NCBI RefSeq assembly: GCF_044324875.1
Contig: NZ_CP172185.1
Length of the DNA stretch: 64,000 nucleotides
Origin: Escherichia coli
GTDB taxonomy: Bacteria > Pseudomonadota > Gammaproteobacteria > Enterobacterales > Enterobacteriaceae
Strand: one strand, 5' to 3'
Shown here: positions 36,293 to 36,387 of the stretch, one piece after another
How the letters are laid out: every line of letters begins with the position of its first letter
Numbering within the stretch: the stretch's first letter is position 1
Program-made: the position numbers and the translations under genes
The notes under the pieces: model-generated
The model's database searches: none
What the model was told of the DNA's origin: nothing
Seen by the model: the letters and a program-made list of their open reading frames with translations, nothing else

Positions 36293-36362
36293 AGATGTTG
36301 TTCTGCCAATGTTATGCCGCTGCACCCTCAACTTACGTTATCCCAACTTGTGACTGTTATTC

Positions 36363-36387
36363 GGCGCTCCACGGAGCGCCTTTTTTT
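36363..36387 (+). terminator. Rho-independent terminator downstream of malG, abutting the psiE stop
   Basis: GGCGCTCC-ac-GGAGCGCC hairpin followed by TTTTTTT. Confidence 0.7.

Follow-up and report, generated by a model that had tools for sequence, protein, structure and literature searches.

The xylE-less malG-psiE junction of an Escherichia coli genome: MalH terminator anatomy and the probable direction of change relative to K-12

Layout of the malG-psiE locus and the MalH terminator

In the window (the whole 64-kb stretch of Escherichia coli DNA that was analysed), malG and psiE are convergent and separated by a short spacer that lies within the sequence of a small RNA, MalH. The features of the locus are the following.

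35402 to 36292, plus strand: malG, an ORF of 296 aa with an ATG start, encoding a maltose ABC transporter permease; it is the last gene of malEFG and aligns with K-12 b4032
36386 to 36796, minus strand: psiE, an ORF of 136 aa, encoding the phosphate-starvation-inducible inner-membrane protein
36293 to 36385, no strand: the malG-psiE spacer, 93 bp between the two stop codons as read from the sequence
36285 to 36387, plus strand: the MalH small RNA, made up of the final 8 nt of malG (stop codon included), the 3'UTR and the terminator
36363 to 36387, plus strand: the Rho-independent terminator of malEFG/MalH, with stem GGCGCUC/GAGCGCC, loop CACG and U7
36383 to 36387, no strand: the site of the xylE cassette in K-12 and other E/B1/A-lineage E. 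coli, where two blastn segments overlap by five T's

The product of malG matches the NCBIfam MalG equivalog NF008231 over its full length with 610 bits (cut-off 261), and that of psiE matches the PsiE equivalog NF002767, likewise over its full length, with 289 bits (cut-off 222). The PsiE protein of the window is WP_000202902.1, as annotated in the strains GMF054, EFF60 and E2348/69. The ORFs and the equivalog matches bear out the first-pass annotation, which had placed malG directly before the convergent psiE gene with a gap of 93 bp. Synteny with K-12 extends to both sides of the locus, with malF, malE and the divergent malK-lamB on the malG side and yjbT and yjbHGFE-pgi past psiE.

A terminator scan and RNA folding delineated a hairpin at 36363 to 36380, consisting of a GC-rich 7-bp stem and a 4-nt loop and followed by a T7 run at 36381 to 36387. 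On the opposite strand, 36386 to 36388 read as the psiE stop codon, which has two bases in common with this T-run. The scan called a terminator on the plus strand only, and RNA transcribed from the psiE side has GAAUAACAGUC after the stem in place of a U-tract. A bidirectional terminator shared by malG and psiE was considered and rejected, as a U-tract is present in the malG direction only. The spacer had initially been described as carrying a shared terminator hairpin; a hairpin is indeed present, but it is the terminator of malG/MalH, so that the term "shared terminator" appears only loosely correct.

MalH is an Hfq-associated sRNA of about 104 nt that is released by processing of the malEFG mRNA 3' end (PMC8081044; Iosub et al., RNA Biol 2020). 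In K-12 the processed, Hfq-bound RNA regulates ompC, ompA and MicA (PMC8081044). The MalH sequence of the window is identical to the K-12 ncRNA malH (b4807; 4242531 to 4242633) at 103 of 103 positions, seed region included, and the 93-bp spacer is identical to the K-12 sequence 3' of malG up to the T-run. Sequence, position and terminator are thus those of the published sRNA, although MalH is known in the window from sequence alone. The characterisation of MalH was confined to K-12, which has xylE downstream of it, whereas in the window psiE ends inside the MalH T-run. MalH has no Rfam family, and a search of 36100 to 37400 against Rfam 15 at E<=1 gave no match. We propose that transcription of malEFG would end at this Rho-independent terminator, with the final ~103 nt of the transcript constituting MalH; the terminator T-run leads without a gap into the psiE stop codon on the other strand.

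Comparison with K-12 and distribution among E. coli

In K-12 MG1655 (NC_000913.3), xylE (b4031) is located between psiE (b4030) and malG (b4032), an annotation that agrees with the K-12 order malG-xylE-psiE given by the first-pass annotation. In blastn, the window up to 36387 pairs with K-12 position 4242531 and from 36383 on with position 4240738, so that the K-12 segment 4240739 to 4242530 (~1792 bp, or ~1.79 kb) has no counterpart in the window, as expected from the earlier claim that xylE is missing at this locus; the exact breakpoint is ambiguous within the TTTTT at 36383 to 36387. This K-12 cassette consists of a 276-bp AT-rich xylE regulatory region, xylE itself (491 aa) and the terminator hairpin of xylE followed by a further T-run; in K-12 it is this second T-run, in place of that of MalH, whose bases form the psiE stop codon on the opposite strand. 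MG1655, with the order psiE-xylE-malH-malG, otherwise resembles the window in possessing malG, MalH and psiE in the same convergent orientation, the flanks being 97-99% identical, and differs from it by the cassette between malG/MalH and psiE. Neither XylE nor a remnant of the cassette was found in the whole 64-kb window by relaxed tblastn and blastn, which returned chance-level matches only; the best tblastn match of K-12 XylE in the window had an E-value of 0.25 over 27 aa, and none of the window's ORFs is homologous to XylE.

Near the junction, a stretch of 19 bp at the 3' end of psiE contains a cluster of three synonymous substitutions (36400, 36416 and 36418). Among the E. coli and other Escherichia compared, they occur in the window only, and two of the three states are also present in C. 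koseri; the changes are derived in the window and not in K-12. The cluster may represent a short recombination tract or may be due to chance.

How common the arrangement is in the species was assessed with a 1401-bp query across the junction, which matched 5425 of the 5426 complete RefSeq E. coli genomes. The malG-psiE junction is uninterrupted in 1786 of the 5426 genomes, about a third, and in the remaining ones the match breaks at query position ~984-988. Of the same collection, 3639 genomes contain the K-12 cassette. Since 1786 and 3639 add up to 5425, that is, all the genomes with the locus, the junction-type genomes are evidently without xylE elsewhere, and from these complementary counts we infer that xylE is absent from the entire genome of this strain, of which 64 kb are visible. 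That small visible part would leave room for a xylE gene elsewhere on the chromosome or on a plasmid, and the collection does contain one plasmid-borne xylE match and one genome with two copies, but the complementary counts leave essentially no room for junction-type genomes with xylE and the window holds no XylE-like sequence, and we regard this explanation as very improbable. That the xylE region was collapsed or dropped during assembly is barely conceivable, as 1786 independent complete genomes, and other species too, share the identical junction, and the junction sequence is unique and non-repetitive. The initial reading that this genome appears to lack xylE holds for the locus, but the absence is no peculiarity of this genome, the junction being shared by 1786 of 5426 genomes and prevailing in the Enterobacteriaceae. 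The xylE-less malG-psiE junction represents a gene-content polymorphism that is ordinary, frequent and known from the literature.

Over the junction query, only five genomes reach an identity of 99% or more with the window, GMF054 being the best match (99.7%). Like the window, E2348/69 (O127:H6), EFF60 and GMF054 have malG, 93 bp and psiE in uninterrupted succession, an identical MalH and a sor operon nearby. E2348/69, a phylogroup B2 strain (PMC8534289), differs from the window in having no arpA and is 97.8% identical to it over the 1.4-kb junction query, whereas EFF60 is arpA-positive like the window (the gene being annotated as espL4 in EFF60). In the window arpA is intact (60532 to 62715) and encodes 728 aa with 97.7% identity to K-12 ArpA. 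The sites of the Clermont primers AceK.f and ArpA1.r are perfectly matched and 400 bp apart (62698-63097), and the E-specific arpA primers have mismatches at the 3' end; chuA, yjaA and TspE4.C2 are located beyond the window. On account of the intact arpA gene, the exact Clermont sites and the mismatched E-specific primers, the strain would, as an arpA-positive one, not belong to B2 or F, and its non-E-type arpA allele indicates that it is probably not E and probably belongs to phylogroup D.

The junction in other Enterobacteriaceae and the direction of change

A PsiE-based scan with one genome per species provided the best 80 loci for comparison, with E. fergusonii, Salmonella and E. coli not among them. 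In 66 of these 80 loci malG adjoins psiE without xylE, in nine xylE lies between the two genes and in the other five the fetched DNA has no adjacent malG. A MalH-type hairpin with a T-run leading straight into the psiE stop codon, as in the window, is found in 48 of the 66 xylE-less loci. These 48 include four Escherichia loci (E. albertii, E. whittamii, sp. E1V33 and sp. MOD1-EC7003) and further loci from Enterobacter, Citrobacter (C. koseri and others), Leclercia, Lelliottia, Klebsiella, Raoultella, Kosakonia, Trabulsiella, Pluralibacter and more, and in other genera the terminator stem is kept by two-sided changes (GCGCTC/GAGCGC, GCGGCC/GGCCGC, GCGATC/GATCGC). Among the best 80 loci, xylE occupies the site only in eight genomes of the C. 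freundii complex and in K. oxytoca; K. michiganensis, K. grimontii and K. pneumoniae are without xylE at the site.

Other species carry unrelated cargo at the same malG-psiE junction, which suggests that it is a recurrent insertion site. A LysR-type regulator gene and HAD-family genes are present there in locus L044 (5409-7185) and a 147-aa ORF in L036 (4065-4785), while L038 and L040 have PTS and sugar genes at the junction, downstream of psiE. Smaller insertions are seen in the malG 3'UTR. An ERIC-like repeat of ~125 bp lies inside the 3'UTR, between conserved MalH-like motifs, in species of Enterobacter, Lelliottia, Kosakonia and their relatives (L005, L037, L042, L043, L059, L061, L062, L065, L067 and L075) and lengthens the spacer to ~200-340 bp. 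ERIC-like inserts also occur in the malG 3'UTR of K. oxytoca (L068) and K. indica (L080), and six Klebsiella/Raoultella loci (L069, L071, L073, L078, L081 and L082) have a different insert of ~100 bp there.

Two secondary losses of xylE could be recognised, which are independent of each other and both scarred, whereas the window has no remnant. In C. braakii ATCC 51113 (L020) a 382-bp mosaic of xylE fragments, promoter region and terminator was kept. In E. coli PCN061 (L087) an IS1-mediated deletion runs from downstream of pgi through yjbEFGH-psiE-xylE and left 280 bp of the xylE upstream region.

The presence/absence polymorphism of xylE has been described before, with the same direction of change as proposed here: in an ancestral reconstruction, xylE counts as a gene that the EB1A lineage of E. 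coli acquired (Gonzalez-Alba et al., BMC Genomics 2019; PMC6896753, main text and supplementary file 9). In its passages on xylE, that study does not go into junction anatomy, MalH or a cross-genus comparison, unlike the present analysis. As given in those passages, the gain is limited to the E, B1 and A phylogroups (PMC6896753); the genomes checked here are one K-12 and one O157. Based on the outgroup junctions, the scars of the known losses, the recurrent use of the insertion site and the published EB1A gain, we consider it likely that the window keeps the ancestral xylE-less arrangement and that the K-12-type strains carry an insertion. The ~1.79-kb xylE cassette would have been inserted inside the MalH T-run in K-12 and other E/B1/A(/C)-lineage E. 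coli, and the lineage of the window strain most likely never acquired it. Weak support for an acquisition by the K-12-type strains comes from the lower GC content of the cassette (47.6%, vs 53-54.5% for malG, malF and yjbH). The K-12 flanks contain no foreign donor tract, the psiE 3' end and MalH being of E. coli type right up to the cassette, and they therefore point to no donor and no insertion mechanism.

The main alternative is a secondary clean loss, in which an ancestor with the order malG-xylE-psiE lost the 1.79-kb cassette by slippage or recombination between the T7 of the MalH terminator and the T5 of the xylE terminator, or in which homologous replacement brought in a xylE-less allele from another E. 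coli. Its attraction lies in the T-run microhomology at both cassette ends: with the breakpoints in 5-7-nt T-runs after two terminators, a clean slippage or microhomology deletion would give the same scar-free junction. The three psiE 3' substitutions described above, restricted to the window among the Escherichia compared, could moreover mark a small recombination tract. In addition, xylE orthologues are found at the same site in two other genera, Citrobacter and Klebsiella (K. oxytoca), and have diverged as much as the flanking core genes, the nucleotide identity between E. coli and Citrobacter/K. oxytoca being 82-85% for xylE and 81-84% for malG, malF and yjbH. This equal divergence would fit an old vertical inheritance with many losses, but it would equally fit an unsampled enterobacterial donor, because the genera are roughly equidistant. 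For the same reason, xylE versus flank divergence gives no date for the cassette, equal values between roughly equidistant genera not separating the models. What weighs against a clean loss is that the scar-free junction is present in all four non-coli Escherichia and, in total, in 48 of the 66 xylE-less loci, which would require dozens of identical independent deletions, that the documented xylE losses (C. braakii, PCN061) left scars, and that xylE figures as an EB1A gain in the published reconstruction as presented in its passages on this gene (PMC6896753). We therefore regard a clean loss as unlikely and favour an ancestral absence of xylE.

If the cassette was indeed gained, K-12 would not represent the reference state at malG-psiE and xylE would be a lineage-specific addition. 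While the xylE polymorphism itself was already known, the present comparison adds that the spacer is MalH, whose T-run shares bases with the psiE stop codon throughout the family. The MalH T-run would double as psiE stop codon across the Enterobacteriaceae, at a site that repeatedly takes up cargo genes.

Functional context and further differences from K-12

XylE is a low-affinity D-xylose/H+ symporter (MFS sugar porter) and XylFGH is a high-affinity ABC transporter, owing to which xylose use does not depend on xylE. Xylose uptake of the present strain would presumably proceed via XylFGH, encoded outside the window. B2 strains including E2348/69 have been grown on xylose (PMC8534289), and the fact that E2348/69 is among them without having xylE is consistent with xylE being dispensable. 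Roughly one in three sequenced E. coli, major B2 lineages of extraintestinal pathogens among them, would accordingly use another route of xylose uptake.

The direct convergence of malG and psiE, with a sole hairpin that has no U-tract in the psiE direction, raises a further possibility, although in our estimation a quite improbable one. In xylE-less strains, read-through from psiE during phosphate starvation might yield antisense RNA against MalH and the 3' end of malG, or result in transcriptional interference. If true, the Pho regulon would be linked to maltoporin/porin tuning in B2-/D-type E. coli and in most other enterobacteria, and K-12, the source of all MalH work, would be insulated from psiE read-through by the 1.8-kb xylE cassette.

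Next to the malG-psiE junction, the window differs from K-12 at a number of other positions. Two larger segments are absent from K-12. Between alr and tyrB, ~4.1 kb (7964-12040) correspond to a nested IS insertion with the following parts.

8007 to 8537 and 11206 to 12009: an IS3-family transposase gene, split in two
8759 to 10405 (istA) and 10179 to 11177 (istB): an IS21-family element inside the IS3-family gene

Between rluF and pepE, ~6.3 kb (46470-52797) hold an L-sorbose-type PTS operon, comprising genes for a DeoR/SorC-like regulator, an SDR dehydrogenase, EIIA/B/C/D and a sorE-like reductase, and a sorbose-type PTS operon is found at the same place in E2348/69 and EFF60. Conversely, ~134 bp of K-12 between pgi and yjbE (window 41513-41523) and ~122 bp between yjbD and rluF (45554-45563) have no counterpart in the window, both being probably REP-type intergenic elements. 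In the psiE-yjbT intergenic region (36881-36939), K-12 has a REP-like palindromic element of ~112 bp and the window 57 bp of unrelated sequence. Downstream of lamB (29472-29594), the window contains a REP-like short intergenic repeat that matches two further intergenic places in K-12, near yjcH/acs (38 bp, 100% identical) and near aceA/aceK (130 bp, 84% identical).
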